DNA from: Cyanidioschyzon merolae
Taxonomy: Eukaryota
NCBI GenBank assembly: GCA_000091205.1
Contig: AP006497.2
Strand: one strand, 5' to 3'
DNA: 64,000 bases
A model generated the notes under the pieces. The model was given only the letters and a program-made list of their open reading frames with translations. It did no database searches and was not told the DNA's origin. Numbering within the stretch: position 1 is the first letter of the stretch; every line of letters starts with the position of its first letter. The position numbers and the translations under genes were made by a program. This document shows positions 10,020-64,000 of this stretch, piece by piece.

Positions 10020-10318
10020 CCGCACGCTTCCGGTTTTTTTTTTCATTGGCGAAACGTTTACGTAGGCCAGCGCTCTCTGATTCTGCGCTTTTTCTCTTCT
10101 TTTTGGGTTTTTTTTTCAGTGCGCGTTGAAGAATCCATCAACCCCCTACCTCCAAGTTACATGACCTATACTTCTTCTCGGGTCTTCTGGTCGTTTCATA
10201 CGTCTGGTCGTGTGTCAAGCCTGATGAAAGCGACAGCAATAGCGTCTTTACCGTTGGTACTGTTGCATCACGGAGACAGAACGGCGTTGCCGTACCACAG
10301 AGGGCGTCCGCTCGAGGC
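10020..10318 (+). repeat. Dispersed repeat family R, copy 1 (about 300 bp). It has T-rich tracts near the 5' end and an internal hairpin.
   Basis: About 80% identical to 18267-18593 over the full length (for example ...ggccagcg(c/t)tctc(t/c)gatt(c/a)tgcgc..., ...ggagacagaacggcgttgccgtaccaca...gggcgt(c/g)cgctcg). Confidence 0.8.
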
Positions 10319-10918
10319 ACGCTCTCGGTTCATGAGTATTTTCTCATCAAAAGTCCTCAGCTGTTCCGCAAAATACCCACACTGAGCACCAAACGATTCC
10401 TTCGAAAATTCGCTCAGTACAAAGCCGCTCGAGGCCCAGAAGCACAGGGGCATTCCGAATGTTGATCGAAGGGGTAAAGTCTTGGCGCAGCGCCTGTCTG
10501 CGCCTATGTTTGCCGGTGGAAATACGCCATGTAAAGCCTCTGACATTTGATTAGCTCGCCGTCCGACGTTCGCTCACCTAACCATACAACGTCTTGTGCA
10601 TCCCGCCCGATTTCACGCACATTCTCCATTCCTGTTACAGCGTGCTCCCGCGCGCTACGAAGCCACCTGTTGCCGCCACACACGCACCTGTCCTCTACGT
10701 GGCCATGGATGGCCATGCTTCACAGCGACGGCATTGCGGCGGTTCCAGCGAGTTATGAGCGACGCACTGGAGCGACCCTGCTGGTCGCAGCCTACCGTCT
10801 CGATCAACGCAACCCTCGACCAGAATGCGAAACAAGGCGGTGCTTCTGGAATCGTTTCCTACAGTCGCAAGCAAGCGCTTGCGCAGCTAAAGCGCATACA
10901 GGATTCTGCAGGCATGCT

Positions 10919-12433
10919 TTACGAACGATGGACGAATGGTACCAAAAGCGTGCTTAATCCGACCATGATCGCGCCCGAGGTGAGTACCCGATTATGCTGG
11001 ACTGCGACGGAAGCGTGGCGCCCCAATACTGGGCTCAGTAGAGCAACTGCAATCTCGGGGAAACACTGACTCGCGTTGAAGAGCGTCGCAAATGTACCAG
11101 CAGCGTCTCGTGCATTGCTATTCGCAACGGATGCACCGACAAGGGCCCAGGGAATCGTGATGCTCGTTGCCCACGAGATACCAAGGACAGCCTGCAGGCA
11201 CACCGCGAGTACCACATTCCGAGCGCCAATGGTTGCCAGCGCGAGTAAAACGGTGGCCTGTACCACCAGAGAGAACCCGTACTTCACCTGCATTGGTGAG
11301 AGTCGCCAAACTCGATACTGGATCTGCGGCATGAGCATGGCGTACAAGAATGCGATGATGCTCTGCAGCGCTAGAGCGACATTCGCGTGACGTATTCCCG
11401 CTTCGTAGCGTTCCCTCGCGATGCTCCCCGCGAGGGCATGCGGATCACCACCGAAAACATTGACCCCGAACCAGGAGCTACCGAAAACGAACAACGAGAA
11501 CCATCCGTACCATGTACCGAGTTGTATCAGGAAAACAACCCAAAATGTCGTGGACGCAGTCTTCAGTGCTCTCCGGCAGTGCTGCACAAGGCTCAGCAAC
11601 TGGCTCGCCACTGGCTTTAGCGTCAGTCCAGTCGCGCGCATCATTCCGGGCGATCGAGAGGCGAGTTCGCGGCAGTTATCGCTTTCCGCTTCGTCCATTG
11701 ATTCGGTATCAGGTATCGGTAGGCGTACGTTATCACTTTCGGGTACGGTCCATGGTGTCGTCTGGGCTGGGCAGGAACGGTTGCGTGCTAGCGGCGCGCT
11801 GGCGACCCAACAGACTGCTGCAGTTCCGAGAACAAGCACAGCACCGATAGTGTACAGCGCTTCTGTATCAGTCGAGAATACATGCCGCAAAAATGTGTCT
11901 CTAGTTAATGCCGCACCTGCCATAGCACTGCCAACGAGGTTTCCTATCGCAATGTAGACCGCTATGGCCACATTACCGCGTTCCTGCTCAGCGGCTTCGA
12001 CGTGGTCGAAAATCAAGGCTCTCAAAGGCCCTTGCATGGCATTTATTGAAAAGTCTAAGCACCAGAAAGCGGAAACAGCAACAAAAAGCGGCGTCAAGAA
12101 GCGAGAGCGGCGCGCTATCGGCACCGCGTAGGCGAATGCAAGTAGCGAGGCTGACGTGAGCACCGCACCGACCGCTACAAACGGCCTGCGTTTTCCGTGC
12201 CGACTGGAGCTCCTGTCCGAGAGCAGGCCTACGAGCGGCTGTACAACTAGGCCTGCAATTGGTCCTGCCAACCACGCCAGTGAGACCCAACGTGCAGTCA
12301 TGCCAAGTTCCAGAAGTACCGCCGTCGTCACCCCGACTTGCACCGCCCACGCGTACTGGATGCCTAGCATGGCCGATGTCACCAGGTATAGACGTAGGGT
12401 ACTGAGTTTAGCGGCTTGTTCCTCCATGCTCAA
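10919..12433 (-). CDS. Sucrose/H+ symporter-like MFS transporter (GPH family; plant SUT / animal SLC45 type).
   Basis: N-terminal GIQYAWAVQ...LGM and RRPFV motifs match the SUT/SLC45 signature (G-x-Q-x-G-W-A-L-Q ... RRRPFI). About 12 hydrophobic segments. The first in-frame ATG is at 12425-12427 (the ORF-track start at 12433 is TTG). Confidence 0.75.
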   Translation of the reverse strand: MSMEEQAAKLSTLRLYLVTSAMLGIQYAWAVQVGVTTAVLLELGMTARWVSLAWLAGPIAGLVVQPLVGLLSDRSSSRHGKRRPFVAVGAVLTSASLLAFAYAVPIARRSRFLTPLFVAVSAFWCLDFSINAMQGPLRALIFDHVEAAEQERGNVAIAVYIAIGNLVGSAMAGAALTRDTFLRHVFSTDTEALYTIGAVLVLGTAAVCWVASAPLARNRSCPAQTTPWTVPESDNVRLPIPDTESMDEAESDNCRELASRSPGMMRATGLTLKPVASQLLSLVQHCRRALKTASTTFWVVFLIQLGTWYGWFSLFVFGSSWFGVNVFGGDPHALAGSIARERYEAGIRHANVALALQSIIAFLYAMLMPQIQYRVWRLSPMQVKYGFSLVVQATVLLALATIGARNVVLAVCLQAVLGISWATSITIPWALVGASVANSNARDAAGTFATLFNASQCFPEIAVALLSPVLGRHASVAVQHNRVLTSGAIMVGLSTLLVPFVHRS

Positions 12434-13029
12434 GAATATACGGTTCCTATTGCAATCTAGTCCTAGATGTTGGCACCATAGCCTCTGTGACTCGCGATAG
12501 TCGCGTTGGAGTGCAGCTCCCTACTCCGGCTGCGTTCCGCGAAGCACAATGTTGAGCGGCAAGACGGTGCTGACGCCCGCAGCTGCGGCATGGAGCGCGC
12601 TGCAACAGAGGCGAACTGTGGAGAAAAGAACAGAAACGAAGCTCAAACGACCAACGAAATAGTACGGTCTATCGTCGTCTAGGGTCAACGGTAAGAGCGG
12701 GAAAGCTTTGCTTATCGTCGAAAGTTTACTTTATAGGCGGAAGGTCCCGCGAGTCCGACGAGTCTGCAGGGCACACGCTCTGTGCGACTCTGCAGTGTTT
12801 GTCGGGGTGCTTTAGTGAGAGAGCTACGCAGCTCGTCCGCAACGCGCTTTATCCTGGGACGACGAGCGGGTACGCTGCAACTAGGCATCATGCTGGTCAC
12901 CGGTTTATTCTAGTATGTCGCTTCGCGGTGCCACGGTGAGTACGTTCGTCTGCGCATCTTGCTGGCTCCTTCAACGATGATGGACTCCGATTCCATACTG
13001 AATGAACCACGCATCGAGCCGACGCACTC

Positions 13030-13115
13030 ACTGGTATGGCAAAGCCGTTCTGTCCCTGCGATGCATCCGTACCAGCGCTATAAGCGTTACGGTGGGTACT
13101 CGAGGCACGCTCTCT
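13030..13115. repeat. Fragment of repeat family R, containing the core in inverted orientation plus a short piece in direct orientation.
   Basis: ctggtatggcaaagccgttctgtccctgcgatgcatccgtaccag matches the reverse complement of ...ctgtggtacggcaacgccgttctgtctccgtgatgcaacagtacca.... tactcgaggcacgctctc matches 10313-10330. Confidence 0.6.
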
Positions 13116-14491
13116 GCGAACGATAGAACGTACGGAACGACCAGTACATCAGAAAGGAACTATAAGTTATAGAACCTGGAGACAGGGTGCAACAGCATGA
13201 TGGACGCTTTTTCGATCAACAATATCCACCCATCCGGCAATCTGCGATCCACGGTGAATGGGAATGTTTTGTCAGACCAGAAAAATCGTCCACCGGCACT
13301 GGAACCGGGCGCAGGGGCATATGCTCCGAGCCAGTGTTCAGTTCTCGAAGCGCTTCTGAACACGAACGTGAAGCGTTCTCAATAGAACTCTGGCGTTCAA
13401 ATGAATAGGTTCAATCAACGCAACGTCCGTGCACGACGGATCTTGCACGGCGACTCAGAATGATGACGACACAGGCCCGACGGTTCCTGCGAACCGGGCC
13501 GGGCACGAGCATGAGCACCCCACGTCCGTCGTCACTGAGCCCCGTTTGTTGTAGGGCATCGTATTCCAAGAGCGCCAGCCAAGAACGCTTTGCAGCACCT
13601 CTATCCAACCGGGGTATACCGGAAGCTGCTGCCGCAAACTGGTTGTTATGAATGAGGCACCATGGGGGAACAGGTCTCCGTCATACGCGTTATGGACTGA
13701 CGCGTCGGGTTCAATACGCGACTCGCGCTTCGATCCGAGAGCGCATACTGGCATCGGATAGCAGATGTGGAAGCGATTTGCTTTTTCATTCAGTAGAAAT
13801 GTATCTGTTTACGTGAAACGATGAGAGGAGGCGGCAAGAAGCGATCCAACTGGACATACGTGCCTGGTACCATTTTTGGCACAAATGTCCAACAGATGTC
13901 CTCGCGCAACGCACGCATCCATGGAGACACGTGTACCTTTCCGTGTGATTCTCATTGATTTCGAGATGGTGTTCATGCTTCTCGTTGGAAGCGTTGAATT
14001 CTCGTGTAAGTGATAGCGTGGCTGGCTATGCTTCGGCGTTTCAACCAGCCAGTAGTTATGGTTTAGCTTTCGTGCGCAGGTTCTAGCGGCGATCTCTGCA
14101 CATCGGAAAGCTCTGCGCTCCTCCAGCGAGAACCATGTACGGATTCAAGTCGCACTGTCTCGAGTCGGAACGCATGTTTCGTTACAGCAGGCGACGCAGG
14201 GCCAGGCCTAGCTCTCGCGGTTGCTTTGGTTGCGATATACATAGCGAGAAGTGCGCTGGTGTGTCGGTAAGTCTAAACCAGTAGGGGCTCTATCCGCGAA
14301 CGCATCTTTTCTTGGAGCATGCGTCGACCAGCGCATACTTACCGGAGAAGCGCGCGGGTCTTCTCGCGGCCCGTACTCGCACCCATCAGGTCGAAATCGT
14401 GTTACTGGGGCAGGATTCTGCGCCTGCGCAGCACCGTACAGATCCGGTGTTCTGAGTTCCCTCGTCAGGCTCTATGCGGTGCATACGGATG

Positions 14492-17485
14492 CTATGCTGC
14501 AGCGTTTGCAGTCGGTGCCTGCGGTGTCCCAGTGCCCGTCACAGACGCCGAATCCACATTCTGGTCGGTTTCAGCGCGCGTATCGCGCAACAGTGCCCGG
14601 TACAGGCGCCAGAGCGGATACCACCAGTCTGATTCGTCTGGGCTGGAGATATCAACGCCACGAGCTTCCAGGCGACTATACAAACGGGTTGCCGCTCCGA
14701 CACAAACCTCCGGTTTCAGACGGCTCGTGAGAGCCATCCCGGCAGCTTCGGCGAGCGCTGGATTCGCTGGAATATCAGCACGGAAGCCGAGCGCCGCGTC
14801 GATGACGGCATCAAGCAATGCCTCCACACCGTCGCCGGATGTAGCGAAAGCGTATCGAGCGGACAATGCGCTTGCCACCCGGCGAGCGCCATCGTGGCCG
14901 TCTACATCAAACGACATCTGGAGCGCAGCGAGCTCCACCGCAACCCGCTGGCTCAGCGTGCGACGCTCGCGGATGCGCTGATGCACCCAGCGTGCCGCGA
15001 CCGCGAGAATGTCGTTGCCAGTCGACCGGGGCTGGAGGAAAAGGAGAGGAATGGCTTCCATGGCCACTGAGGCTGGTCCAATTAGGATGCGTTGGCAAAG
15101 CGCAAGCACGGCATTATCGCAGACAGCGCGTGCGCGAAGCAGATCCCGGAACAGGTCGCGAACACTGATGCTGAGTGTCTCTTCGGTTTCCATGCCGAAT
15201 GCCCAGCCGCGCCCGAACGCGATGCTCCACAGTGAAAGCAGCACTTCGAGGCCGGTCGTCACGATTTGGGCGTCCTCGTCATGCTGCGCAACATGCCATA
15301 TTGATCGAAACGCTAGATCCCAATGCTCATATGCCGATTGCGGTTCATTGTCAGCGGAGGCGTCGTTTGAATAGCTCGCATGCCACAATACATCGAGAAA
15401 AAGAATTCGACAAACGAGCGACGCCACGGTGGCGGGAATTTTCGCTGACCCAGCTTGGCGCTGGGCCAAGACGATGTAGAGGACCCGTCGCAGGCCATCC
15501 ATCGAAGCGGAGTCTTTCGGCGATATCCACTCGAGCGCGGCGAGCAACTGGTTGCAGCGAGTTTCTGTGCACACGTCTAAAGTGTGCATGCAGCATGTAC
15601 TGAGGAGTTCCTGCAACCGGATAGGGATGCTGTCGCTGTCGTTTTCCGTCCTGTTCTCGAGCGCGTAGAGCGCCCGAACGATCGCCCGCATCGCTTCTAG
15701 GCTCTGGGCATGACGGTGGAACGCGTCCATAAGGAGCGGCTCGATGACCTCTTCATGAGCGTGGAAAGCGTCACTGCAGAGCCGAACAAGCTGTGCGAGG
15801 GCGGCAACAAGCGCCGGATCTGACTGGAACCTGCGCATGAGGCGCGGAAGCGCTTCGCGACATGCTGCAATCAGGAGCGTGCTTGCGACAGCAGGCTGGA
15901 AGGTCCCCTCTGGATTCGTTGAACACCGCGCGCTGGACTCTTCCAGGCACTGGACGCGCTCCGCCACAGCGACCCAGAGACGAATCAGCGCCAGCCGGTC
16001 AGCATCGGTCAACGGCTCCGACCCATCATCTGGTTCTCCTTCCTCCAGTAGTTCCACGTATGCGTTCCAGGTGCAGAGCGCCGTGATGGCTGCATCGTGC
16101 CAGAGCGCCTCACAGACTCGTGTGTAGGAGTTTTGATTTGCCGTCAAGATTAGAAAAACGATTTCTCGTAGCATCGCTTTGGGGGCATGTTCTACCCCGA
16201 ATCGCTGAATATAGGCGCTATTGGCGAGCTCTATGTAGGTGATGGAGAGAGCGCCAGCAGCAGCTCGGACGGGTGCTCTCGGATCCTCGGTAATGAGGTC
16301 TAGTACGCCTTCGAGCTCGGCCTTGCCCAGCCAGTCCGCAGGGAGCAGCGTCTGTGCGAGTCGAATGGCTTGAATTGCAATCTGCTCCTCGCGGTCGCGA
16401 GTCATTTCTACGAGTCGCACACGAAAACGTTGCAAAAACGCCTGCATCGGTACCACATAATTCGGATTGGATACGAGCTGTAAGATAGCATCCAAGGCAG
16501 CGTGCCGAACCTTGCTGTCCTTGTCGTAAATCATCCATCCGAGATACTTGAGAAAGCGATCTTCAAGAAATCGAGCAGGAGCGGAGCGAATCCAGCGGCC
16601 CAGGGCGCTAATGCAATGGAAGCGGATGTCAGCGAAAACGTCACGGTAGCGCTTTGCAAATACCGTCTGAACAAGGTGCTTCACCAGATCCTGCGTGTCA
16701 CTGGTTTGGAGCCGGATTTTCTCGAGTGCTGATCGATTCCGCACGACATTCCGTTGCACGGCAGCAGCCTGATCCTGTAGCGCTCGTTCTACAGCGAGCA
16801 ACCCGTCCACCGTATGGAGCGCTGCAACGACCGCGGCGAGCCGCACCGCTCGCAGACGACTCTCTGTCAGGTAGGCCAGCCATGAGACCCAGGCATCGAT
16901 CAAATCGGAGTCCATCCAGACGGACTCTGGGCAAGTCTGCACAAGCTGCTGGAAACAGGTCTCATATTTTTGCGTAAAGCGACGAGCATCCCGCGTTGTT
17001 GCACTTAGCGGTGGGATGAGAGCTGCACGTCCGAGTTCGCTCTCCGAAATGCGCGGCAAGATCGCCGTACTAAGGGCATCCACGAGTACTTTGGCGTTCT
17101 CGGGGGTAGCTACCCGATCGGGGCCCTCGATGACGCTATCGGCCAACAGTTGAAGAATCTCCGAGCGGCAGCTTGGCTCTTCGGCAAGCGTCACTGGATG
17201 CGCGGCGAGCACAACCAACTCTAACAGTTCGCAAATCGTCCACTTGAAATCCGTACTCGCTCTGCTCCAGAACTCACTCAGTGGCCGACTCAAGTCCGCG
17301 GAACGGAGTCTCAACGCATCGTAGAGGAAACCGCCGCCCGAGTGCACCTGATGGGTGAATGAAGCAGAGCGCGGGCTGCACGGGCTTGTTGTCAGGTCCG
17401 GGACGCGCGTCTGCTCAATAGGTTCTTCATCAGTACGAAGTTGGTGTACCGGATCGACGAGAGCAGCCTCCATCCGTTTCAACAA
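14492..17485 (-). CDS. SCC3: Cohesin subunit SCC3/SA (STAG family), carrying the stromalin conservative domain.
   Basis: ...FAKRYRDVFADIRFHCISALGRWIRSAPARFLEDRFLKYLGWMIYDKDSKVRHAALDAILQLV... matches the STAG SCD block (F-x-RYRD-x-IR-x-C-x-LG-x-W...YLKY-GW-L-D-VR). The rest is helical HEAT/ARM-like sequence. The first ATG is at 17471-17473 (the track start is TTG). Confidence 0.75.
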   Translation of the reverse strand: MLKRMEAALVDPVHQLRTDEEPIEQTRVPDLTTSPCSPRSASFTHQVHSGGGFLYDALRLRSADLSRPLSEFWSRASTDFKWTICELLELVVLAAHPVTLAEEPSCRSEILQLLADSVIEGPDRVATPENAKVLVDALSTAILPRISESELGRAALIPPLSATTRDARRFTQKYETCFQQLVQTCPESVWMDSDLIDAWVSWLAYLTESRLRAVRLAAVVAALHTVDGLLAVERALQDQAAAVQRNVVRNRSALEKIRLQTSDTQDLVKHLVQTVFAKRYRDVFADIRFHCISALGRWIRSAPARFLEDRFLKYLGWMIYDKDSKVRHAALDAILQLVSNPNYVVPMQAFLQRFRVRLVEMTRDREEQIAIQAIRLAQTLLPADWLGKAELEGVLDLITEDPRAPVRAAAGALSITYIELANSAYIQRFGVEHAPKAMLREIVFLILTANQNSYTRVCEALWHDAAITALCTWNAYVELLEEGEPDDGSEPLTDADRLALIRLWVAVAERVQCLEESSARCSTNPEGTFQPAVASTLLIAACREALPRLMRRFQSDPALVAALAQLVRLCSDAFHAHEEVIEPLLMDAFHRHAQSLEAMRAIVRALYALENRTENDSDSIPIRLQELLSTCCMHTLDVCTETRCNQLLAALEWISPKDSASMDGLRRVLYIVLAQRQAGSAKIPATVASLVCRILFLDVLWHASYSNDASADNEPQSAYEHWDLAFRSIWHVAQHDEDAQIVTTGLEVLLSLWSIAFGRGWAFGMETEETLSISVRDLFRDLLRARAVCDNAVLALCQRILIGPASVAMEAIPLLFLQPRSTGNDILAVAARWVHQRIRERRTLSQRVAVELAALQMSFDVDGHDGARRVASALSARYAFATSGDGVEALLDAVIDAALGFRADIPANPALAEAAGMALTSRLKPEVCVGAATRLYSRLEARGVDISSPDESDWWYPLWRLYRALLRDTRAETDQNVDSASVTGTGTPQAPTANAAA

Positions 17486-18266
17486 GCTCCCAGAAACGGA
17501 GTTATGCTTGCCAAGGAAACCCCGAAAGTCGCAGGCACTGCGGGACGTCTAGAGTTCCAGGAATCAACCGCGCGTTCAACGACTTGTTCTTCTCAAAGTA
17601 GATTGCTTGCGTATACAAGTGTGCTGCCGCACCGTTTCTGTTCGAGAAGCAAAGTCGCGTCCACAACACGCCTCTATGTACGGCCAGTGAGCACCGTTCG
17701 AACAGGAGGCGCGCAACCTCGTTGCTGTGAAACGCAAGGCAGTACCGAGGCGCTCGATCCTCAAGTCACATTGGCGCCAAATTCGTAGCGGGCAGCATCA
17801 GGATCGTTTTGTTCAGAATTCCGCGTTGATGGATCGATGTTGCTTCGTGAACGCTGTGGAATCTCCGAGTGTCCATACTTTCTCATTCGATTCTTTATGT
17901 ACGTTTCGCGACCTCCGGACCAGTACCGGCCGTGGAATGCCTGGGACTCCGGGTGCGTGCATGGATGCTGTGTCCATGAGCGGCGGGATGACCGCGTGTC
18001 ATCTAGGCTGCATGGGCATCTCACGATCTGGGCAATGGTGTGCGTTTTTCGCTGTCTGCAGCACATGACCCCCTTTGGCGACCACGTTCTGTTCGGGCAA
18101 ACTGCTCGCCGCAACGCAAGGCCATCGCGTGCGCCACGTGCGTTCTCTGGCGGAGAGCTCACTAGCAACGGGTGCTTTGCATGAACAGACTGTTTCGTTG
18201 GGCACTCGAATGCGAATCCAGCCGCTCTTGCGCGATGGATGAAAGCAGAGGCGTCCGACGATGTCT

Positions 18267-18593
18267 GCGTGCGCTCGTTGCCGGATTGCTTTTCTTTTTC
18301 ACTGACGAAACGTTTCCATAGGCCAGCGTTCTCCGATTATGCGCATTTTTCTTTTCTTACTTTTTTTTGTGTTTTTTTCAGTGCGCGGTGAGGTATCCAT
18401 CAAACGCCCTGCCTCCAAGTCACATTACCTATACTTCATCTCGGATATTCTGGTCGTTTCATACGCCCTATCGTGTGTGCCAAGTACCTGCCGAAAGCGA
18501 CAGCAATAGCGCCTACAGCGTCGGTGCGATCGCTGCACGGAGACAGAACGGCGTTGCCGTACCACAACGGGCGTGCGCTCGTTGCCGGATTGC
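18267..18593 (+). repeat. Dispersed repeat family R, copy 2, bounded by a 23-bp terminal direct repeat.
   Basis: gcgtgcgctcgttgccggattgc occurs at 18267-18289 and again at 18571-18593 (304 bp apart), flanking the element. The internal sequence is homologous to 10020-10318. Confidence 0.8.
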
Positions 18594-36780: not shown

Positions 36781-37634
36781 AACGTGTTCCCGCAGCAGAG
36801 TGGCAGACCAGCCACTCGGAAAATATCGCCGAGAATCCCTCAGCACGAGCACCTGGGCATGGAGTGTCGATGCAGTGCGTCTAGAAGGAAAAAAGTTCGA
36901 ATAAAAATCTCACACCAGCAACAGAGTGAACAAATCAGTGTTCCACTCTCATCTGAAACGGGTAGAGAGTCAGCGCCATTCTTGCGAAAGCGCTTTCGTG
37001 AATGTGGTCGCGTACCCGCAAACCTGCAAGCATACGTAAAACCTGCATACTTCCCGGGCGGATACTCAATATGTGAATACATGGCTTCGCTGGCCGTTGC
37101 TCCTTCAGATGCACACTCTAGCTGGTGACCGGACCACTAGTTCGGAGACTGAAGTCGCCCGCAAGCGGTACGCTCGGCGTGCCATCTGCTCGGAAACTCA
37201 CTGGAGCCAGCACCCACACAGGCTAAAGCAAAGCTGGTCTTTGTTCGTACGTCGTCCGCAGCGCCATTCACCAGGCACAGTTGTCGATACTCGATGGATC
37301 CATGCAAGACACCCGCGTGCATCGCATGAACGTACCATGATCACGAAGCAACTTCTGGTCTTGGATCCATGGTACACACGAGGTCCGGAAGCGCATAGCG
37401 GGCGCTTCTCTACCTGCCGATCGTAGTCGTGCACACGGGTAGACTGCGGTCAGGTTTAACGATCCCTAAGGATATGCAATAAACTCGTTCGAGCGCATCG
37501 TGCGGAGCTTTTCCCCCCGTGACCTACCGGAAGACTAGTCTAATAAAGCATGCTCTTCCAGTCACATCGATAGATTAGAATTCCATAGGGCACGAGCGGT
37601 CGTTCTTCGCCAGCACATTGCCCACTCTGCGGCG

Positions 37635-38155
37635 CAAGGTGCTGCCTCGTGCGACACGCTGAACCGATCCTCCGTTGATCAGCGTACACAGGGACGTTCC
37701 TCAGTGGATGCTTGTACACCTCTGCTTCGAAGAACGCAGACACCCAAAGCTTCGTGACTCGTTTCAAGGTGCTGCCTCGTGCGACACGCTGAACCGATCC
37801 TCCGTTGATCAGCGTACACAGGGACGTTCCTCAGTGGATGCTTGTAGACCTCTGCTTAGAAGAAAGCAGACACTCAAAGCTTCGTGACTCGTTTCAAGGT
37901 GCTGCCTCGTGCGACACGCTGAACCGATCCTCCGTTGATCAGCGTACACAGGGACGTTCCTCAGTGGATGCTTGTAGACCTCTGCTTAGAAGAAAGCAGA
38001 CACTCAAAGCTTCGTGACTCGTTTCAAGGTGCTGCCTCGTGCGACACGCTGAACCGATCCTCCGTTGATCAGCGTACACAGGGACGTTCCTCAGTGGATG
38101 CTTGTACACCTCTGCTTCGAAGAACGCAGACACCCAAAGCTTCGTGACTCGTTTC
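37635..38155. repeat. Tandem minisatellite A: 130-bp unit, 4 copies, in variant order A-B-B-A (units 1 and 4 identical; units 2 and 3 identical).
   Basis: Unit starts at 37638, 37768, 37898 and 38028, each beginning ggtgctgcctcgtgcgacacgctgaaccgatcc.... Variants differ at cttgtaCacctctgcttCgaagaaCgcagacacCcaaagc versus ...G...a...a...t. The array ends 1 bp before the SelO ORF. Confidence 0.95.
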
Positions 38156-38156
38156 T

Positions 38157-40316
38157 TTGCAACGTAGAGGCGTTCGACGGAAAGCAACTCACAGCTCAGG
38201 AAACGTTGCCCCGCCGCAAGCAGCGCGGCGCAACGGCATCCTCAGACGCAAGGCGTCGGGACTCGGAAACCAAAAATGTTGTTGGTTCGAGAACTCGACT
38301 ATGACTTTTTGGGCCTGGATTGCGCTCACGGGACACAGCGGAATTCATTCGAGGTCGAGTCTGAGAACGCTCCCACGAGAGACAGCGCGAGTACGTAGGG
38401 TGCTGTGGCGGTTGTCGCCTGAACACCCACATCTCGGGCGCAGTGTGTTTACACCATCCCGTACCACGGCGCGTCCGTCAGAAGCGCGTGAGCGACTACC
38501 GCGTAGCGCTTTGCCACACCTCCGCTCAAACTACTCCTTACCTGAAACAGCGATGCTCGGGAGCGGTACTGGACACGGAAGTTCTGATGGAAAGGGAGCA
38601 CCACTACCAGCAACGACGACGACGACGACACACCAGAGTGACGAGCGCCTGCTCACACTCGACGAACTAGTGCTGAGTGCGGGGTTCGCCAGTCGTCTAC
38701 CCGCGGACCCGGAAACTGCAAACTACGTCCGCGTAGTGCGCGGTGCGGCACTTTCGTTTGTGCACCCGTCACCGACCTGGACGGAGCCGGTGCTTGCTGT
38801 CTGGTCAGACAGGTGTGCGCGTGCTTGTCTTGACCTCGAGGTGAGGCCCTCAGAGCGAGACTATGCAGCACGTGTGTTCAGTGGCCTCGCGATGTTGCCC
38901 GGATCGCGACCCTATGCGCAGCGCTACGGCGGACACCAGTTTGGCGTCTGGGCAGGTCAGCTTGGCGACGGTCGTGTCATTGTGTTGGGTGAGTACCAGA
39001 ATCGATGCGGCGAGACCTGGACCTTGCAGCTGAAAGGCGCAGGCAAGACGCCGTTTGCTCGTTTCGCTGACGGGCGCGCTGTCTTGCGCAGCAGCGTGCG
39101 AGAGTTTCTCGCCAGTGAAGCGCTACATGCGCTGGGCATCCCTACCAGTCGTGCGTTGTCCCTTGTGGTCACTGGTGACAAAGTCGTGCGGGACATGTTC
39201 TACGACGGCAATCCACGCGAGGAGCCTGGCGCTGTCGTTTGCCGTCTAGCTCCTTCATGGGTGCGGTTCGGAACGTTTGAATTGGCAACGGACTGGAATG
39301 AGCTGGAGCTTCTTCGACAGCTTGCGGACGATACGATTGTACACCACTACCCGGCATTGCTGGCACATGAGCGTTCTCACGGCAAGCGCACATCCGCAGA
39401 CTCGAGCCGCAGCGCAAGAAATGAAGAGTCCCAGAACCCAATGCCGTATCGAGCGCTTTTACTCCAAGTCGCTGAACGAACAGCTGCGCTAGTTGCCGGC
39501 TGGCAAAGCGTCGGTTTCGTACACGGAGTCTTGAACACCGACAATATGAGTATTCTGGGGATCACCATAGACTATGGTCCGTTCGGCTTCCTGGACGCTT
39601 ACATGCCCGAGTACACGCCGAATACCACAGATCTTCCGGGTCGACGCTATTGTTATGCGTTACAGCCGACCATCTGTTTGTGGAATCTGCTTCAACTAGT
39701 GCGTGCATTCGAGCCGCTCACTGGTACTAATCTCTCGGAGGAAGTGAGTCAGACCTACGAGACCAAGTTTCGCGAAGAGATGTCCGCACGCCTGCGAGCC
39801 AAACTCGGTTTCCAAACCTGGAACTCGGATGCAGATAATGGACTTGTGCGGGACCTGTATGAGCTCATGCGTCAGGATCGAGCGGATTTTACACGCACCT
39901 GGCGAGCGCTGTCCTGGTTAGAGCCCGTTGCTTGTCTACAGAAAAGCGACGCCTCGCTCGAGCCGCTGCTTCGCGTACTCCCAGAGCCGGTTCGAAAGAA
40001 TCCGGACCGACTTGAAGCTTGGCGACTTTGGGTGCAACGTTACGCAGAGCGTACGCTGGCCGAAGACAACTTTGATGGGACTGCACGGCGCAAGCAAATG
40101 CAAGCCGCGTCTCCCAAGTACATTCTACGGAATTACATGGCTCAGGTGGCAATTGAAAAGGCGGAAAATGAACAGGATTTTTCGGAAATCGAGCGACTGC
40201 TCAAGTTACTCGAACATCCGTACGCAGAACAGCCCGAAATGGAGGCACTCTACGATCGGGAGCCACCGACATGGTCCCAGCGCCTTGGAGTGTGCATGAA
40301 CAGCTGCTCTTCCTAA
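38157..40316 (+). CDS. Protein adenylyltransferase SelO (SELENOO/YdiU, UPF0061).
   Basis: HGVLNTDNMSILGITIDYGPFGFLD and GDGRAVLRSSVREFLASEALHALGIPTSRALSLVVTGDKVVRDMFYDGNPREEPGAVVCRLAPSWVRFGTFE are near-verbatim SelO family blocks. The track start is TTG 38157. In-frame ATGs are at 38301 and 38553. The 38157-38552 extension is Arg-rich with no acidic residues, so it could be a mitochondrial presequence. Confidence 0.85.
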   Translation: MQRRGVRRKATHSSGNVAPPQAARRNGILRRKASGLGNQKCCWFENSTMTFWAWIALTGHSGIHSRSSLRTLPRETARVRRVLWRLSPEHPHLGRSVFTPSRTTARPSEARERLPRSALPHLRSNYSLPETAMLGSGTGHGSSDGKGAPLPATTTTTTHQSDERLLTLDELVLSAGFASRLPADPETANYVRVVRGAALSFVHPSPTWTEPVLAVWSDRCARACLDLEVRPSERDYAARVFSGLAMLPGSRPYAQRYGGHQFGVWAGQLGDGRVIVLGEYQNRCGETWTLQLKGAGKTPFARFADGRAVLRSSVREFLASEALHALGIPTSRALSLVVTGDKVVRDMFYDGNPREEPGAVVCRLAPSWVRFGTFELATDWNELELLRQLADDTIVHHYPALLAHERSHGKRTSADSSRSARNEESQNPMPYRALLLQVAERTAALVAGWQSVGFVHGVLNTDNMSILGITIDYGPFGFLDAYMPEYTPNTTDLPGRRYCYALQPTICLWNLLQLVRAFEPLTGTNLSEEVSQTYETKFREEMSARLRAKLGFQTWNSDADNGLVRDLYELMRQDRADFTRTWRALSWLEPVACLQKSDASLEPLLRVLPEPVRKNPDRLEAWRLWVQRYAERTLAEDNFDGTARRKQMQAASPKYILRNYMAQVAIEKAENEQDFSEIERLLKLLEHPYAEQPEMEALYDREPPTWSQRLGVCMNSCSS

Positions 40317-41430
40317 CAAATTAGGCGAAAAGGTGAGGTGTCTGGTTCGTGTACCCGATCGCATGGATAGACATCCACGGATGCCTATTGAAGCACCTGT
40401 AGGAATACTCCTACGAATACCTGCGCGGATACGGCTATGGACACAGGCATGTTCATGGGTGGCAATGGTTGAAGTGCACGATTCGTGCTGGAAACTGCCT
40501 GCAACCTGTCACGTTCACAGTGTGTTGTTGCAACTTGTTTCGCATGCGTCGCCAATGCCGCGTCCCGAGTTTTCTTTTTGTAAAGAACCGCTTTCACCGA
40601 ATACGGTTGGATGCGAATCTTGATGCTCTGGTGGATCATACGCCAGAGACTAGTGGGACCGCTGCAACTGTATATATTCTCAGGACGGCGCTGTTCGTCG
40701 ATCGCGTTTCCAGACACCACACCCGAGCAGTCCATATGATCAGTTCGCATCTATGGGTTCGCCCCGGAGACGCAACGCGGGAGACGTCTTTGCACCCGAT
40801 CCCATGGGTGAATCTGCATCCACCGAGAAAACCGAGTTGAGCGCTTACCTCGTACCGTTTAGGCGATCGCTTTTGAGATCCGATGCTAGCGGGGGTCGGG
40901 GTATCCGCTGACCTTTCTACGACTGGATGCCAGCGCTATGCAGCCTGAACCTCGTCGGAGCTGCTGCTTCGATCGCCATATGAAAACGTGAGATTCGATT
41001 CGTGCAAAGCCAACAAAGAGTCCATATGCAGAATACAAACTTTTCCTTCAGCAAAAGCAGCCTCTTGCAAGTAAGGATCTACGCGAGGTTTGTGGTGTAG
41101 GACCCGTACCTCATTCGCGCTGGGGCGTCTAGAGTGCTGGGGGTCTCCGAGGTGCCCCCGCTGCACGCTCCTGCCCTGCCGCCTGCGCTAAACAACACCT
41201 TTCATATACTGGGCACTCGCGCTCTCTCTACAGGTCCTTCGCTTCATTCATCAGCAAATATCCGCCTGAACGTTTGCCGGCACTGCAACACCAGACTTGG
41301 ATAACTGCATTCAATGAAAGAGTGACGCTCTTTTTCCAACGTAGAGCGCCACCAACCTACAACCGCGTCCTAACCTGCAGCTGTTGCAAGACGCCCTAAC
41401 GAGAGCATCTTCTGTACCGAACAATTTCCA

Positions 41431-41851
41431 TACCAGTGCTGCTCCCTAAGCGCTATCCTAACCCAGCGCACAGTGTCTTGAACGGTTTTGTGGTACGCAC
41501 TCGGAAACAGTTGGCGTACCAGTGCTGCTCCCTAAGCGCTACCCTAACCCAGCGCACAGTGTCGTTAACGGTTTTGTGGTACGCACTCGGAAACAGTTGG
41601 CGTACCAGTACTGCTCCCTAAGCGCTACCCTAACCCAGCGCACAGTGTCGTTAACGGTTTTGTGGTACGCACTCGGAAACAGTTGGCGTACCAGTACTGC
41701 TCCCTAAGCGCTACCCTAACCCAGCGCACAGTGTCGTTAACGGTTTTGTGGTACGTACTCGGAAACAGTTGGCGTACCAGTACTGCTCCCTAAGCGCTAT
41801 CCTAACCCAGCGCACAGTGTTGTTAACGGTTTTGTGGTACGTACTCGGAAA
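41431..41851. repeat. Tandem minisatellite B: 86-bp unit, about 4.9 copies.
   Basis: Unit taccagtgctgctccctaagcgctatcctaacccagcgcacagtgtcttgaacggttttgtggtacgcactcggaaacagttggcg starts at 41431, 41517, 41603, 41689 and 41775. It lies immediately 5' of, and overlaps, the CtpA-like ORF extension. Confidence 0.95.
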
Positions 41852-43946
41852 CGCTCCAGTGGCCGCGTCAGCGTTCGCTGTCCACCTGTGTGCCAGCCCG
41901 TTCAACGAGTGCAGTTCTCTTTTTGAAGATAGAGGCTTCTTTATGCTTCTATTCCAGTCTACACTGGTTCGAGTTTATGTTGTCCGGAGCCCGCCTCGCA
42001 ACCGACAACTGTGTCTCCGCGCTGACTCGAGTCAAGGACGACACCTCCTGGGAGCACGACCTGCACAGCAGACGACGACGACGACAACAACCACTACAAC
42101 TACAACTGCTGCGGCGTCGAGACCGATAACCAAGCTAACAGTATTGCGAGTACAGCAGCGTTTCTGGGAGCGCCATGGAAGCGCTCCAGCGCTGGCTTGT
42201 TCGCAGAGCCCGTTGCAGCCGCACCTGGGCGTCGGTGCAGAGGCTTGCACCCGGCAACGAATCTCAGACCTCAAGCCGAGCGTCGGTGAGCGCCTCCATT
42301 CAGCCTATTATACACGATTGCGGCAAGCTGTGGCGGTAGTTAGAAACTGGGTTTGTGTTGCAAGCGCGCTTCTCTTTGTCTACCTGAGTACCAGCGACCA
42401 GGTGGCCCTGGCGGCTGCCTCACTCGCCAATGGCATGCCTCAAGACCGTCTGGCTCTGGCAACGAGTACGCCCGTTCCAGATCGCTACCGAATTCTTTGG
42501 GAGCAGGCACTGGACATCATCACGAACCTTCACTACCAACCCGGTCAACATATCCATGCAGCCTCGTTAACCATGCCTTCGCACTTGCCGCCTACGCGTG
42601 CGTCCACGATCCCATGGGGATGCTCTCTGGGAACACGTGCCTCGACCTACGATGCCATTCGGATCCGACTCAGTGAATTGAATGATCCCTACTCACGTTT
42701 CCTGGAGCCGGATGAATTTGAGGCGGAACTGAATCCTTACCGGCGAGCTCGGAAGCTCAGCGGGGTCGGCATCATACCGGAGCGCAGTCCAAAAGGCCAC
42801 GGCACGCTGCGCGTTATAGCCGTTATTCCCGAGTCACCGGCTGAGGAGGCCGGAATCAACCCCGGCGATGAACTCGTTATGATTGACGATATTGTCGTCG
42901 AGCCTTCACCTTTGAACCCGATTCCTGTGACCCCCGATGAAGCGTTGGCGTTGCTGCGCGGCCCAGCGGGTACGCGGGTTCGTCTCACTGTGCGACAAAC
43001 GACAAACTCGTTGTCGTACGCTGATGCATCGCTGCAAGTAGCGTCAGCGTCCACAGCGCCGACCTCTATGATGCGTACATATACATTAACGCGGAGACCG
43101 CTTCTGGTAGCTCCGGCTGTCTACGGCCTTGTCGCCGCGGAGCCCACTTTCGGTTACATTCGCCTCCATACCTTCAACGCCGAAGCGACACGTATCGTCT
43201 TCGAGGCTCTGAACGCATTCAAGAATTCTAGCGATCGTTCGGCAGCGGCTGGTGTTATCCTAGACCTGCGCAACTGCCGAGGTGGCGTCTTCCAGGAAGC
43301 ACTGGTGATTGCTTCGATGTTCATCGCAAACCCCGATGCCGTACTCGTCTACACCGTCGACAGTCGGGGTATCGAGCGCGCACACCGGGTGCGTGACCAG
43401 TGGAACGGTTGGCCTGAAGCTCCTGCTGCCGCTGCTCGTACTCCTCGTACTCCTCCTGAGACGCTCGGGAGCGCGGCGTCGGCCCGGCATCCGCTGTACA
43501 ATGGCCCACTGGTGGTGCTCGTCAATGGTGCCTCAGCTTCCAGTAGCGAAGTGCTTGCGATAGCCTTGCGCGATCACGGACGAGCAGTGCTGTTGGGCAT
43601 GCCAACTTTTGGGAAAGCCCGCATCCAACACTACTTCCCGCTTTTGGACGGCTCGGCGATCGCGCTCACTGTCGGGGAGTTTCTCGGCCCGCAGCACGAA
43701 CGCCTCGCGGACCACGTCGGCTTAGTGCCGCAGGTCTCCTGCAACGCTGCACCCCGGAACTTTGCGCTCCTAGAGAGACACACGCCACCAGATGCCTGCA
43801 TCGCAGAGGCAGCTCAGCTGCTAAGCGAAGAACCCACGGGGTCATCGGCTACAGAGCCGGTGCCGGTCGGTGGCTCCGTGCGGTCTGCGTTCACATCCCG
43901 AAGCAGGTCCACTGAAACGACACTGTTGCCTCGGATCCAAACCTGA
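41748..43946 (+). CDS. Carboxyl-terminal processing peptidase (S41, CtpA/tail-specific protease-like) with a PDZ domain.
   Basis: PDZ region GVGIIPERSPKGHGTLRVIAVIPESPAEEAGINPGDELVMID. S41 catalytic region ILDLRNCRGGVFQEALVIASMF ... VVLVNGASASSSEVLAIALRDHGRAVLLGMPTFGKARIQ (Ser/Lys dyad context). The track start is GTG 41748, inside an 86-bp tandem array. The first ATG beyond the repeat is 41943. Confidence 0.8.
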   Translation: MVRTRKQLAYQYCSLSAILTQRTVLLTVLWYVLGNAPVAASAFAVHLCASPFNECSSLFEDRGFFMLLFQSTLVRVYVVRSPPRNRQLCLRADSSQGRHLLGARPAQQTTTTTTTTTTTTAAASRPITKLTVLRVQQRFWERHGSAPALACSQSPLQPHLGVGAEACTRQRISDLKPSVGERLHSAYYTRLRQAVAVVRNWVCVASALLFVYLSTSDQVALAAASLANGMPQDRLALATSTPVPDRYRILWEQALDIITNLHYQPGQHIHAASLTMPSHLPPTRASTIPWGCSLGTRASTYDAIRIRLSELNDPYSRFLEPDEFEAELNPYRRARKLSGVGIIPERSPKGHGTLRVIAVIPESPAEEAGINPGDELVMIDDIVVEPSPLNPIPVTPDEALALLRGPAGTRVRLTVRQTTNSLSYADASLQVASASTAPTSMMRTYTLTRRPLLVAPAVYGLVAAEPTFGYIRLHTFNAEATRIVFEALNAFKNSSDRSAAAGVILDLRNCRGGVFQEALVIASMFIANPDAVLVYTVDSRGIERAHRVRDQWNGWPEAPAAAARTPRTPPETLGSAASARHPLYNGPLVVLVNGASASSSEVLAIALRDHGRAVLLGMPTFGKARIQHYFPLLDGSAIALTVGEFLGPQHERLADHVGLVPQVSCNAAPRNFALLERHTPPDACIAEAAQLLSEEPTGSSATEPVPVGGSVRSAFTSRSRSTETTLLPRIQT
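42071..42106. repeat. (ACG)5(ACA/ACT)n tract, encoding poly-Thr in the CtpA-like N-terminus.
   Basis: gacgacgacgacgacaacaaccactacaactacaact. Confidence 0.9.
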
Positions 43947-49883: not shown

Positions 49884-50205
49884 CTTCGCAGTTTACCGCC
49901 TGATGATCATCGCCCAGGTACACCGTCAACCATCTACGTAGCGTGCACTTGCATCCGATTTCTTTCGTTTCCATACCCCATGACGCCTTTTCGAATGCAT
50001 TCTGCATCGACAACGACGAGCACACGAGTGACTGCAGCTGACGTTTCTCGCTTCCTATAACCCGAAACGCTCGGCAACGACGCATCTCTCGAGAGCATCG
50101 CCCGCAGCCTCGGAGCATCGCAGAGGACCTGATTGCATGCAACGATGCTAGTCCATAAACCGATGGAAAAGAATTGACCCTGTGTATGGGAGCATCTGCA
50201 GCTTG

Positions 50206-50436
50206 CAGCTCATATCCATCACAAGCATCTGTACGAACACCACCGGGTTGACTGCCACACGAAGCTCTCGGGGGTGCGCGGGCAGCTCATATCCATCACA
50301 AGCATCTGTACGAACACCACCGGGTTGACTGCCACACGAAGCTCTCGGGGGTGCGCGGGCAGCTCATATCCATCACAAGCATCTGTACGAACACCACCGG
50401 GTTGACTGCCACACGAAGCGCTCGGGGGTGCGCGGG
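50206..50436. repeat. Tandem minisatellite C: 77-bp unit, 3 copies.
   Basis: Unit cagctcatatccatcacaagcatctgtacgaacaccaccgggttgactgccacacgaagctctcgggggtgcgcggg at 50206, 50283 and 50360. It lies about 200 bp 5' of the ALDH gene. Confidence 0.95.
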
Positions 50437-50640
50437 CGCTCGCGCTTTGCGTCCCGATCCGGCTGTGTGAAGCGAGGCGCTCGCGGGCGATACGCACGAC
50501 TGCCGAGTGTATCTCGACGGCTCGGGTGAGCGCGTGGAGCACTGTCGACCGCAGGTGACCATCGGGTGCAGCTTAGACCTGGTCAAAGTGTACGACGCAT
50601 ATACTCCATTACGCGTAGCGGTTGACGCTGACGGAATAAG

Positions 50641-58491: not shown

Positions 58492-58728
58492 AATACTAGC
58501 AAGCAATGGGATGCTTCTCGGCACCTTATAGCGCACCCGAGTACCTCACCTGCCATGATCCAGTCACCGCAATACTAGCAAGCAATAGGATGCTTCTCGG
58601 CACCTTATAGCGCACCCGAGTACCTCACCTGCCATGATCCAGTCACCGCAATACTAGCAAGCAATAGGATGCTTCTCGGCACCTTATAGCGCACCCGAGT
58701 ACCTCACCTGCCATGATCCAGTCACCGC
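58492..58728. repeat. Tandem minisatellite D: 79-bp unit, 3 copies.
   Basis: Unit aatactagcaagcaat(g/a)ggatgcttctcggcaccttatagcgcacccgagtacctcacctgccatgatccagtcaccgc at 58492, 58571 and 58650. It lies about 120 bp 5' of the MYSM1-like ORF and is followed by (GC)10. Confidence 0.95.
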
Positions 58729-58768
58729 AACAGCGTCGTCGCTGCCCTGCGCGATGCTGCACCAAAGA

Positions 58769-60789: not shown

Positions 60790-62259
60790 ACGATATTTCC
60801 ATACCCTACCATGTCCCGTGGCAGAAGTGCGAGTGACGCGTGTGACTGCGATATCCACTGGAGCAGCCCCAGAGACAGGTGTGGGTTCTTTGTGGATGCA
60901 CCTCCACGGATACGTCGATGAACTCTAAAGTGATGCGCTGGCATTCAGGTGCAGTGCGTTCGTGAAAGCGTGGGTTTTCTTTTACGATAAAGCGGTTCCA
61001 TGCTTACAACCCGATACCTGGCTATACCTGCATGCGAATACGATGGGCAGCGATCGCTCTTGTCTTTCTCATGAGCATCAAGTTCGGTTCATGCGATATC
61101 ACTCACACCAGTGTCTATGCGGTATCGAGGCAGCCCATCTGGAACCGCATGAACGCCTGCCCAGCTGAACGCCCGTGATGAAGTATGCGGAAGGTCACGG
61201 GCTCCCCGAACACCTCCTGTGACGTTATGCGAGGTTGAAAGACGCCTTGGCTAGCCACGAGTACGAACCGACGACGTGCGCGCCGTTGAGAGTGCAACGC
61301 TTCGGCGACCGCTGACGCGCGCCCTGGGCACTCGGTCCGCAGCTTGTCTCGGCTACAGTGCCCAGCGAGCGGCACGGTTAGCAGCGTTCAAGTCTATCCA
61401 GACTAGTTGAAGCGTTACGGAGCAACGTTCGGAGGTGCTCGCTCGAGAAACTCCTCCGGAAGCCGTCGGTCGCTAGTGCAAGCGCTATGTCTGACAGAGG
61501 GCATGTGGTCCATGAATGAAGGATACGACGCACTCCCCTCGGCTTGCTTCGGTGCTCTGAGCGTCTAGATGGGCGCTGACGCCATCATTGCATTCGTTGG
61601 TTCGTCTGGGGGCGTCCATAACGAGCACTGGAAAAGTTGAGAACCTGTATCTGCTTTCCGTTGAGGTCTTTGGCTCCGATCTCTTGATTTACAGGTGTGG
61701 TGACAGCCATGATGTCCTTAAACCCAACGTCCATGCCAACGCTAACGTCATTCTCATCATCCATACGGAACAGACGAGCATGAGTTCTGTCGCTTGGCCC
61801 AGGTCTGGGTACCACACACTGCATGCAAATGAATATTTCGTCAGTCACTTCTGTCCGCGTAAAATGCATTCCATTTGCTCCTTGTAAACGAGAAAACTTG
61901 AATGAGCTCTGTCAACGCCCATGGCGAAGCTGCTCGGATGCTTCCTCCTCTCTAGCGGAGACCAGTGGTAGCTCACTGAGGACACCAGCCAGCGCACTGC
62001 ATAAGTTTCTACACTGATACCATGAGCCTTGCTCTGCAAGATGGTGGCCACGTATCGACGTTACGCTTCCAGATGGCGAAGGTATTCGGTTTCGGTGGAC
62101 GGAATCTGCTTTGCTCCCGATGACTCTTTTCGGGGACACCTTGTAGCATGAGGTGCTCCAAAGACAGGCATCACGTTCAAAAGATCGTTGGAGTATCACG
62201 TTCACTGGTCTAATACCCAGACCATCATACTACGCATGGCCAATCTGGAGCGATGCTTG

Positions 62260-62525
62260 CTCTCGTTGCGACATCTCTTCCGAACTCGTAACCTTCTCGA
62301 TCTTTTCCGACACCAGCTCGTCATTTGCCCTTATCGACACACTAGGAATCGGTTCTATCAGTATGGGACTCGGAAACCTCTTTATCTCTACTGATACCAG
62401 CTCGTCATTTGCCCTTATCGACACACTAGGAATCGGTTCTATCAGTATGGGACTCGGAAACTTCTTTATCTCTACTGATACCAGTTCGTCATTTGCCCCT
62501 ATCGACACACACAAGGAATCCTTTC
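62260..62525. repeat. Tandem minisatellite E: 84-bp unit, about 3 copies, with degenerate flanking units.
   Basis: Unit ccagctcgtcatttgcccttatcgacacactaggaatcggttctatcagtatgggactcggaaacctctttatctctactgata at 62313 and 62397, partial at 62481, with a degenerate copy upstream. Confidence 0.9.
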
Positions 62526-64000
62526 GACATGTCGCTGATTTCTGCGCCAGCCAGATTCTGGTGCAATTCGTAGAAAGCATGCCTCATGAAGCGCTCTATT
62601 TTAACCCGCATTCGTTTCTGGTTCCCGTAGTTCGTTTGCTGCCTGTCGGTACCGGCACTGGCGCATGTTTCTTCGGTGGCCGACGTGGCAGCACCACGCG
62701 TCAAGTTATGCCAGCAAGCGTTTGTGCAAACCCCGCATCCTACACTGACGCAGCGATGCATGTACCGCGCAGCACTCCAGTTCCCGCATGAGGGTTTGAT
62801 CGAGAAATTTCAGAGGAAGATGGATAACTGGTAGCGCTGTGTCGGAAACTCCTCTGCACAGTTGCTCGGCGAGATGCATCATGAAAGAGAGACTGGACGT
62901 GGCTTGCCTGCGTAACGAGCTACATGATGTGGGGCGGTTTTCTATATTCCTTGTCATCGAAGTTGCTCCCGATTTGCGTGTTTTAGCATAGAAGCCTTGA
63001 GAATGTTTTGAGTTTGGTTTTTCGGCTCCGACGGTTTTTCCTTGCTGAGATTTCTCGTCATGTCTTCTGGAGGATCGTTCGCTTCTTTGTGTGGCTCGGT
63101 TCAACGCCTTTTCGTTTTCTCGGCAAAAGTCGTATGGACGTGGTCCCGGGAATCAAGCACCGTTTCTTTTATTCAGACGCAGACGCGTTCGGTGGCCGTG
63201 CACCTCAAACGCTTCTACGATCTGTACGTATCTTCTCCTTCGACCGCATATTTTCGTCATCCGTCTTCGTCGCGCGCACGCCGACGTCCCGCAGCACTGC
63301 TTTCCGCTCCGCACAGCGCACGAGAGCAGGCAAGCAACATACGAGTTCAGTGCTGCTGAATATAGAGAACGACCTGTCGAAGCACGGGGTCGTCTATTTG
63401 ATCGACTTTTCAATGGATCCATGATTGTGCATATGGTGTTTGCCGACAAAGAACACGCCCTCGACTGGACTGAATCAGGGAGGCTGAGCTAGCCCGTAGA
63501 GCAGCGCATCCCATGCTGCAGCTGCGTACACCTTGACCGCTTTTGAGTGATGGAAACCGACGCTTCTCAAAGCCGGACATAGCAATATGGGATCATGGAG
63601 CCACCGAGTGCTTCACTGAGGGATAATCTTTTGTGCGATCCTTCCGTTTGAGCAAATCACAGGCGACTACATGATTGCATTGCCGCCAGCGCTGATACAT
63701 CGTGAATTTCGCTTGCCGCTCCCGCGCGAAGAGCGGTTCGCTCTTCTTTGCGTACCAGTGAACAAGTCTACCATTGGTCGTGAGTGAGGTCTCATCGGCT
63801 GAGACGGACGTCTGTCCCTCTTGTGATAAGCGTTCGCGTTTCAGAGCGAACTCCGTGGTGTCTTGTTTATGGTGCGATAGTCTCCCGTAGAGGCCTGCAT
63901 ATTTTCTTTGACGTTTGCATCATTTCATCACTGTTCCGGTCAACGATAGGAAAACTTCATATCCTGTATCATCTTTGATCGTATTTCTTAGAGAATAGTA

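Follow-up and report, generated by a model that had tools for sequence, protein, structure and literature searches.

Transposons are famously all but absent from the model alga Cyanidioschyzon merolae, whose main repeats have stood as 'class unknown' since 2013. Bao and Jurka (2013) described CMe-1A, a Fanzor1-encoding repeat of ~3 kb present in ~150 copies that are ~80% identical to the consensus, and recognized its 5' ~635 bp as a separate short repeat, TE-N2_CMe, of ~70 copies; they reported no inverted repeats and no duplications and left the class of both unknown (PMC3627910). CMe-1A has been reported at ~150-250 copies, amounting to ~5% of the C. merolae genome. Nozaki (2007) counted a 253-copy repeat of 3.2 kb in C. 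merolae, as well as 26 non-LTR-like retroelements and no elements with long terminal repeats (LTRs) (PMC1955436). Here we analyse a 64,000-nucleotide stretch of nuclear DNA of C. merolae 10D (contig AP006497.2, assembly GCA_000091205.1; hereafter the window) that carries three copies of a repeat of about 300 bp, family R. Family R is very probably the ~290-bp 3'-terminal module of a non-LTR retrotransposon family of the long interspersed nuclear element (LINE) type, with copies 1 and 2 of the window representing dead insertions of R alone. The R repeats are an ordinary transposon family, neither a short interspersed nuclear element (SINE) of the tRNA type nor a functional hairpin. Part of the unclassified repeats is thereby given a probable class and mechanism on two grounds: the end module is the 3' tail of a resident non-LTR retroelement, and copies made of this tail only carry duplications. 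The novelty is modest and consists of this probable class, of the duplications and of an unexplained linkage to a Fanzor-like gene.

Several described systems resemble family R in part. SINEs that borrow the tail of a partner LINE, such as UnaSINE1 with UnaL2 or tRNA-derived SINEs, are likewise short and non-autonomous, with a discrete 5' end, the tail of the partner LINE, an A-rich end and duplications of variable length. However, R has no head transcribed by RNA polymerase III (pol III) and no A or B boxes, and LINE-tail sequence makes up all of it. RIME/ingi and NARTc/L1Tc of trypanosomes and HAL1 of mammals are, like R, derived from an autonomous element, dependent on its reverse transcriptase (RT) and devoid of a pol III head, but RIME retains both ends of ingi and HAL1 retains ORF1, whereas a solo R retains the 3' ~290 bp only. 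Bao and Jurka themselves drew the HAL1 analogy for CMe-1A (PMC3627910). As for CMe-1A and TE-N2_CMe, they share with the repeats studied here the organism and the architecture, i.e. a short form alone or joined to a TnpB-like open reading frame (ORF). The differences are that we find their outer ~290 bp to be an inverted LINE 3' tail, and that a still shorter form of ~290 bp (copies 1 and 2, subfamily B) exists with clear duplications.

Dispersal and retroposition hallmarks of family R

Copy numbers were obtained from Joint Genome Institute (JGI) metagenome contigs. The contigs covering the window locus are 99.4-99.5% identical to it over 7.7-10.8 kb and therefore come from a strain near-identical to C. 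merolae 10D. A scan for the R core motif retrieved 85 stretches, and a profile built from the three window copies gave 116 matches; grouped by their flanks, these form 43 clusters, of which 39 have full flanks, or ~40 distinct loci. The R family is dispersed, so that its window copies do not stem from a local segmental duplication, an alternative named in the original prediction. Copy 2 is 90% identical to the copy in locus L022 and 88.7% to that in L063, in both of which R adjoins RT-element sequence, and 81% identical to copy 1. Its greater closeness to copies elsewhere points to separate insertions of copies 1 and 2. At many loci the family is represented two or three times over a few kb, frequently with one copy inside or next to another (L016/L083, L015/L066, L014/L030, L026/L053, L035, L037, L041/L076, L072, L029, L086 and the window), and this clustering may reflect an insertion preference for existing copies or the presence of transposable element islands.

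The alignment of the 39 copies with full flanks defines the anatomy of R. A sharp boundary lies, in 39 distinct copies, at an A-run on the sense strand (a T-run on the plus strand of the window) that varies in length from ~6 to 16 nt. An A-rich end on the minus strand and a tail of variable length, both anticipated by the original prediction, are thus borne out, but the tract quoted as this end, gaaaaaaaaacccaaaaagaag, is internal. Opposite this boundary, roughly one copy in three terminates a few bases at most from GGCTCGAGG (plus strand), and the others continue as two classes whose common part is only the terminal ~295-330 bp. Solo R copies are 281-320 bp long, and 11 of the 13 end at GGCTCGAGG within ~3 nt; in the long forms, a stem-loop lies just upstream of this common 5' end. 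Two subfamilies can be distinguished: B, to which copies 1 and 2, the solo copies and the RT copies belong, has the internal A-rich tract, and A, with copy 3 and the Fanzor-type copies, lacks it. One A-subfamily copy, in L014 (2160-2200, inside R), carries a (GGAT)n / (ATCC)n microsatellite expansion that replaces the segment before the tail. On the plus strand of the window, the internal A-rich tract mimics a 3' splice site (polypyrimidine plus CAG), a resemblance that we dismissed as its mere complement.

In class B copies, a decayed RT ORF located upstream of R and pointing at the A-run is recognized by Pfam RVT_1 (E = 1.3e-13). It shares 81-85% identity with the C. merolae 10D proteins annotated as 'retroelement, alive', R forms the 3' end of these copies, and one of them has a duplication. 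The window differs in that it has no RT sequence and holds tail-only copies, the link between R and RT being seen in the metagenome copies. Solo R and the RT element share the terminal ~295-330 bp in sense orientation. An ORF running from the RT into R looks accidental.

Target-site duplications, whose search had been suggested by the original prediction, were assessed by comparing the 26 nt outside each end of the 13 solo copies. The mean score was 6.15 for cognate pairs of flanks versus 0.2 (standard deviation 2.3) for non-cognate pairs, and the cut-off, a score of at least 4, was reached by 11 of 13 cognate pairs versus 10 of 156 non-cognate pairs. The duplications of solo copies are 9-14 bp long and begin right after the A-run; a solo copy of the A subfamily, L068, has one of 9 bp. 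There is a single example of a 5'-truncated RT-type copy with such flanks: L056, 785 bp long and closed by R and the A-run, lies between the two members of an exact duplication of 11-12 bp, ATCGATCACGCG. A variable A-run, duplications of variable length, an RT partner and a lack of inverted repeats together form the signature of target-primed reverse transcription. RNA ending in R and a short A-run would be copied by the LINE RT into nicked chromosomal DNA, and the insertion would leave a target-site duplication of variable length. The dispersal of the family, its RT partner, its A-run end and its duplications are observed, and from them we infer the reverse-transcription mechanism itself.

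These data also bear on two other kinds of mobile element. R might be the solo LTR of an LTR or Penelope-like retroelement, given that it lies 3' of RT sequence and also directly 5' of further repeat sequence in at least five loci, and that two direct R copies are found 4 kb apart in L083. However, the duplications are variable, at 9-14 bp, instead of having a fixed length of 4-6 bp, there are no TG...CA ends, and Rfam detects no hammerhead ribozyme. Moreover, the sequence downstream of R at those loci is a Fanzor-like unit, neither gag nor pol, what precedes the second R of L083 is not RT sequence, and no LTR elements have been reported for this genome (PMC1955436). We consider the solo-LTR interpretation extremely improbable. 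A miniature inverted-repeat or other cut-and-paste transposon was discarded as well: the family consensus has no terminal inverted repeats, its ends CCTCGAGCC... and ...GTCAATGAAAAAAA not being complementary, and the duplication length varies.

The common start of the short copies raises the question of a SINE. It could represent a discrete transcript start at CCTCGAG, a site at which the RNA is processed or a position immediately 3' of a hairpin at which the RT tends to stop. A true SINE would be transcribed by pol III from a tRNA, 5S or 7SL head with A and B boxes and mobilized by the LINE via a shared tail; the shortness of R, its discrete 5' end, the tail shared with a LINE, the duplications and a consensus sense strand free of a T4 terminator would all be in keeping with this. 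Nevertheless, ARAGORN predicts no tRNA in the window, Rfam gives no match at the gathering score in the window, L067 and L017, and at E<=1 it yields for copy 1 only a chance match to a snoRNA. The segment of R once thought to resemble an A box does not hold up, as no A- or B-box consensus is matched within 2 mismatches, and since the RT-encoding element contains R in full, no separate head is left. That R is a SINE in this strict sense is very unlikely. The earlier idea of a SINE-like retroposon in minus orientation thus survives as to the mobile retroposon on the minus strand, with its A-run, duplications and RT partner, but not as to the SINE. We infer that the shared start makes the short form SINE-like in behaviour without its being a SINE.

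Several points weigh against the assignment of R to a LINE tail. The copy number is drawn from metagenome contigs of a near-identical strain. Random 5' truncation of a LINE does not predict that 11 of 13 short copies should begin at nearly the same position, which calls for a specific start or processing step. Frameshifts mark the RT copies as decayed, and no endonuclease domain was identified in them. At several loci, homology runs past the A-run into Fanzor-like sequence, meaning that the A-run is not the end of every unit. Finally, copy 3 and other copies of ~650 bp have only weak or ambiguous duplications, such as microhomology at L053b and an 8/10 match at L031.

The window copies and the conserved core

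Copy 1 is a solo R of the B (LINE-type) subfamily, delimited by pairwise and family alignment to 284 bp on the minus strand (10034-10317), where it reads 5'-CCTCGAGCGGACGCC...GCCAATG(A)10-3'. Its 5' end coincides with the common end of 11 of the 13 solo copies. Abutting the element are cacgcttccgg on the tail side (10023-10033) and cacgctctcgg on the 5' side (10318-10328), which agree at 9 of 11 positions and form the target-site duplication; a degenerate repeat had been noted at this copy in the original prediction. Copy 2, also a solo R of the B subfamily, spans 281-292 bp on the minus strand (18290-18581) according to its alignment to copy 1 and the family. An exact 23-bp direct repeat, gcgtgcgctcgttgccggattgc, flanks it on the tail side (18267-18289) and on the 5' side (18571-18593, partly within the element), as first described. 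We read this supposed terminal direct repeat of the element as its target-site duplication. The true minus-strand 3' terminus of both copies is the A-run (10034-10043 in copy 1, 18290-18299 in copy 2), directly adjoining the flanking repeat. Copies 1 and 2 would be independent dead insertions of the shortest form, R alone, with the sense strand corresponding to the minus strand of the window, and copy 1 would be the older one, its duplication having decayed.

At the 5' junction of copy 2, 12 bases of the repeat (18582-18593, ttgccggattgc) fall outside the family consensus, and the other 11 nt (18571-18581) belong both to the repeat and to the consensus 5' end of the element, to which they match at 9 of 11 positions. 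This overlap indicates microhomology at the 5' junction. A similar microhomology between target and element, AACAGAG, is found at the 5' junction of L053b (L053:4277-4576). Matches this long would be unusual by chance and suggest 5' joining mediated by annealing.

The two full copies lie in direct orientation to each other and, close to the ~80% first estimated, are 81-82% identical. They differ by three small indels of 6, 1 and 4 nt and by non-periodic substitutions, which argues against a coding potential of R. The hammerhead or other ribozyme suggested by CTGATGA...GAAA in copy 1 was rejected, since the motif is not conserved in copy 2 and Rfam finds none.

Copy 3 is a diverged A-subfamily member of ~665 bp on the plus strand (~12620-13285), inverted relative to copies 1 and 2. 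This locus had been taken for a remnant retaining only the core hairpin, a view that has to be abandoned: sensitive BLAST and MAFFT align it in inverted orientation with copies 1 and 2 along the whole R module (~12990-13285, tail ...gttttgtcagaccagaaaaa), and its likeness to longer family members reaches ~700 bp from the tail. The same type occurs in the 3-kb Fanzor-like repeat and in the 635-bp form related to it. The internal A-rich tract is the only part of R that it lacks, because it is a member of a different subfamily. No clear flanking duplication was detected at copy 3, which presumably represents an older insertion of this longer sister form in opposite orientation.

According to column identity and motif count, the best-conserved stretch of R is a 23-nt core, GACAGAACGGCKTTGCCRTACCA, with a column identity of 0.92 and a palindromic hairpin, ACGGC-GTT-GCCGT. 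It is found at 10275-10297 (minus strand) in copy 1, at 18542-18564 in copy 2 and, inverted, at 13032-13054 in copy 3, i.e. three occurrences in the window versus 0 expected. One may ask, therefore, whether R is a functional non-coding RNA or a cis-regulatory module under selection, of which the hairpin would be the active part and the spread a secondary matter. Besides the conservation of the core, the retention of the small hairpin ACGGC-AAC-GCCGU in nearly all copies and the intergenic location of all three window copies speak for it. On the other side, the folding z-scores of -0.43 to +1.37 are no better than those of shuffled sequences, and the RNAalifold consensus of the whole element reaches only -6.3 kcal/mol. 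The compensatory hairpin on which a function had been surmised is not kept across the family: 69.8% of its cells can pair versus 69.5% after shuffling (208 of 500 shuffles being as high), no covariation is seen across 36 copies, and 3 of these 36 have the central A-U pair. Only the palindromic hairpin of 5 bp within the core is retained, with one-sided changes. Copies vary by indels and are 62-82% identical, position-specific constraint being confined to the core, and no match exists at the syntenic loci of three related algae. A function of this kind appears highly improbable. For annotation, the ~290-bp R blocks are best masked as retroposon fossils rather than listed as candidates for RNA genes or regulatory hairpins.

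The Fanzor-like repeat and its junctions with R

Class A copies consist of an R in opposite orientation, followed by ~660 bp and an ORF of ~680 aa. The ORF has TnpB/Fanzor-like motifs (GADPGNTN, EFRTSYTHHE and NRDFNAAINI) and 258 homologues. Sequence and profile searches found no Pfam, NCBIfam or PDB match, and its AlphaFold2 model is poor (predicted local distance difference test score, pLDDT, of 34). We regard it as a putative Fanzor on the basis of these motifs and of the literature. The class A repeat is most likely CMe-1A / TE-N2_CMe of Repbase, to which it was matched by the published architecture, and it also fits the 253-copy, 3.2-kb repeat counted by Nozaki (2007). In copy 3 of the window and in L031, L053, L059 and L082, R and ~350 bp stand alone; otherwise the TnpB-like ORF comes next.

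The position of the A-subfamily R as the outer 5' terminus of the 3-kb repeat opens the possibility that the Fanzor1-carrying CMe-1A is a DNA transposon with R as its left end, that the short copies are deletion derivatives moved by its transposase and that the RT elements merely picked up R. Internally deleted derivatives retain both termini (L014, L035a), as those of a DNA element would, and no duplications surround the full 3-kb copies, in agreement with Bao and Jurka (2013). An 11-mer, AGAACGGCGTT, is also common to the R core and the far terminus of the 3-kb element. Nevertheless, the duplications of 9-14 bp that directly follow the A-run of solo R are a hallmark of target-primed reverse transcription; the A-subfamily solo copy L068 has its 9-bp duplication, the truncated RT-type copy with a perfect duplication ends in R, and terminal inverted repeats are missing. 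We hold this scenario to be decidedly unlikely. A 5'-truncation series of the 3-kb element was likewise considered and rejected, as L014 is an internal deletion with both ends.

With R as a LINE tail, its association with the Fanzor-like unit calls for an explanation. A recurrent junction is found in at least five loci (L035:9358-12740, L083:2389-5836, L005:5881-8659, L029:1-3643 and L039:98-3152), in which RT, R and the A-run are followed by a spacer of 45-120 bp and then, in the same orientation, by the last ~230 bp of the region that precedes the Fanzor-like ORF, the ORF itself and its 3' end. The LINE part has different 5' extents at these junctions, namely solo R, 862 bp and at least 1-2.5 kb. 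At these loci, neither simple nesting nor 3' transduction could be demonstrated. A full LINE with an antisense Fanzor gene in its 5' region, as L090 might suggest, was discarded, since four other loci continue as LINE where L090 switches to Fanzor sequence.

The outer 5' ~635 bp of the 3-kb repeat is an inverted R-type retroposon. It is tempting to speculate that CMe-1A is physically built on a LINE-tail retroposon, and that the Fanzor unit spreads via the LINE machinery or targets LINE tails, although we consider this rather unlikely. Should this hold, it would provide the first case of a Fanzor with a functional connection to a retrotransposon; according to a 2026 review, no Fanzor-encoding retrotransposon is known and evidence for such a connection is lacking (PMC13565253). 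The repeated physical linkage of a LINE tail to a TnpB/Fanzor-like gene merits study in a tractable organism.

The terminus of the Fanzor-like unit is sharply defined, at ...AGAACGGCGT(T) (L067:2890-2933, L005:8637-8677, L035:5545-5590 and others), and it is at this terminus that the 11-mer also present within the conserved R core is located. Two variants precede the terminus, both of them hairpins, CGTTC-gagttta-GAACG and CGTTTTTC-tttt-GAAAGGCG. In this they recall the conserved hairpin located near the ends of rolling-circle or IS200/605-type elements, or else the end of an omega-RNA.

Gene neighbourhood and other repeats

The three R loci of the window occupy three consecutive intergenic spacers within a run of minus-strand genes, and all three fall within 8.5 kb, with none in the remaining 55 kb. 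The cohesin SA subunit of C. merolae 10D is encoded, with 100% identity, by the 997-aa ORF at 14492-17485 on the minus strand; an idea based on GC content and gene runs, that R might be a trypanosomatid SIDER/Pr77 element, was dropped on this account. Neighbouring ORFs encode a major facilitator superfamily (MFS) transporter, a PABA synthase, an SNase-domain protein and a methyltransferase. Copy 3 lies ~190 bp upstream of the start of the MFS gene, which is on the other strand.

Insertions help to explain intergenic size differences. The cohesin-MFS spacer that holds copy 3 (12434-14491) is ~2.06 kb long in C. merolae, as compared with ~0.4 kb (L002:12977-13378) and ~0.7 kb (L004:12991-13670) in two related algae, and the R element was not found in the syntenic intergenic regions of three related algae. 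The 665 bp of copy 3 account for only part of this difference.

The window also contains minisatellites. Four different arrays, with units of 130, 86, 77 and 79 bp in 3-6 copies each that are 92-100% identical, are located at 37505-38284, 41420-41935, 50205-50437 and 58492-58730, each just upstream of or overlapping the start of a long plus-strand ORF (38157, 41748, 50641 and 58846, respectively). A fifth array with 84-bp units (62284-62535) lies within the ORF at 62153-62791.

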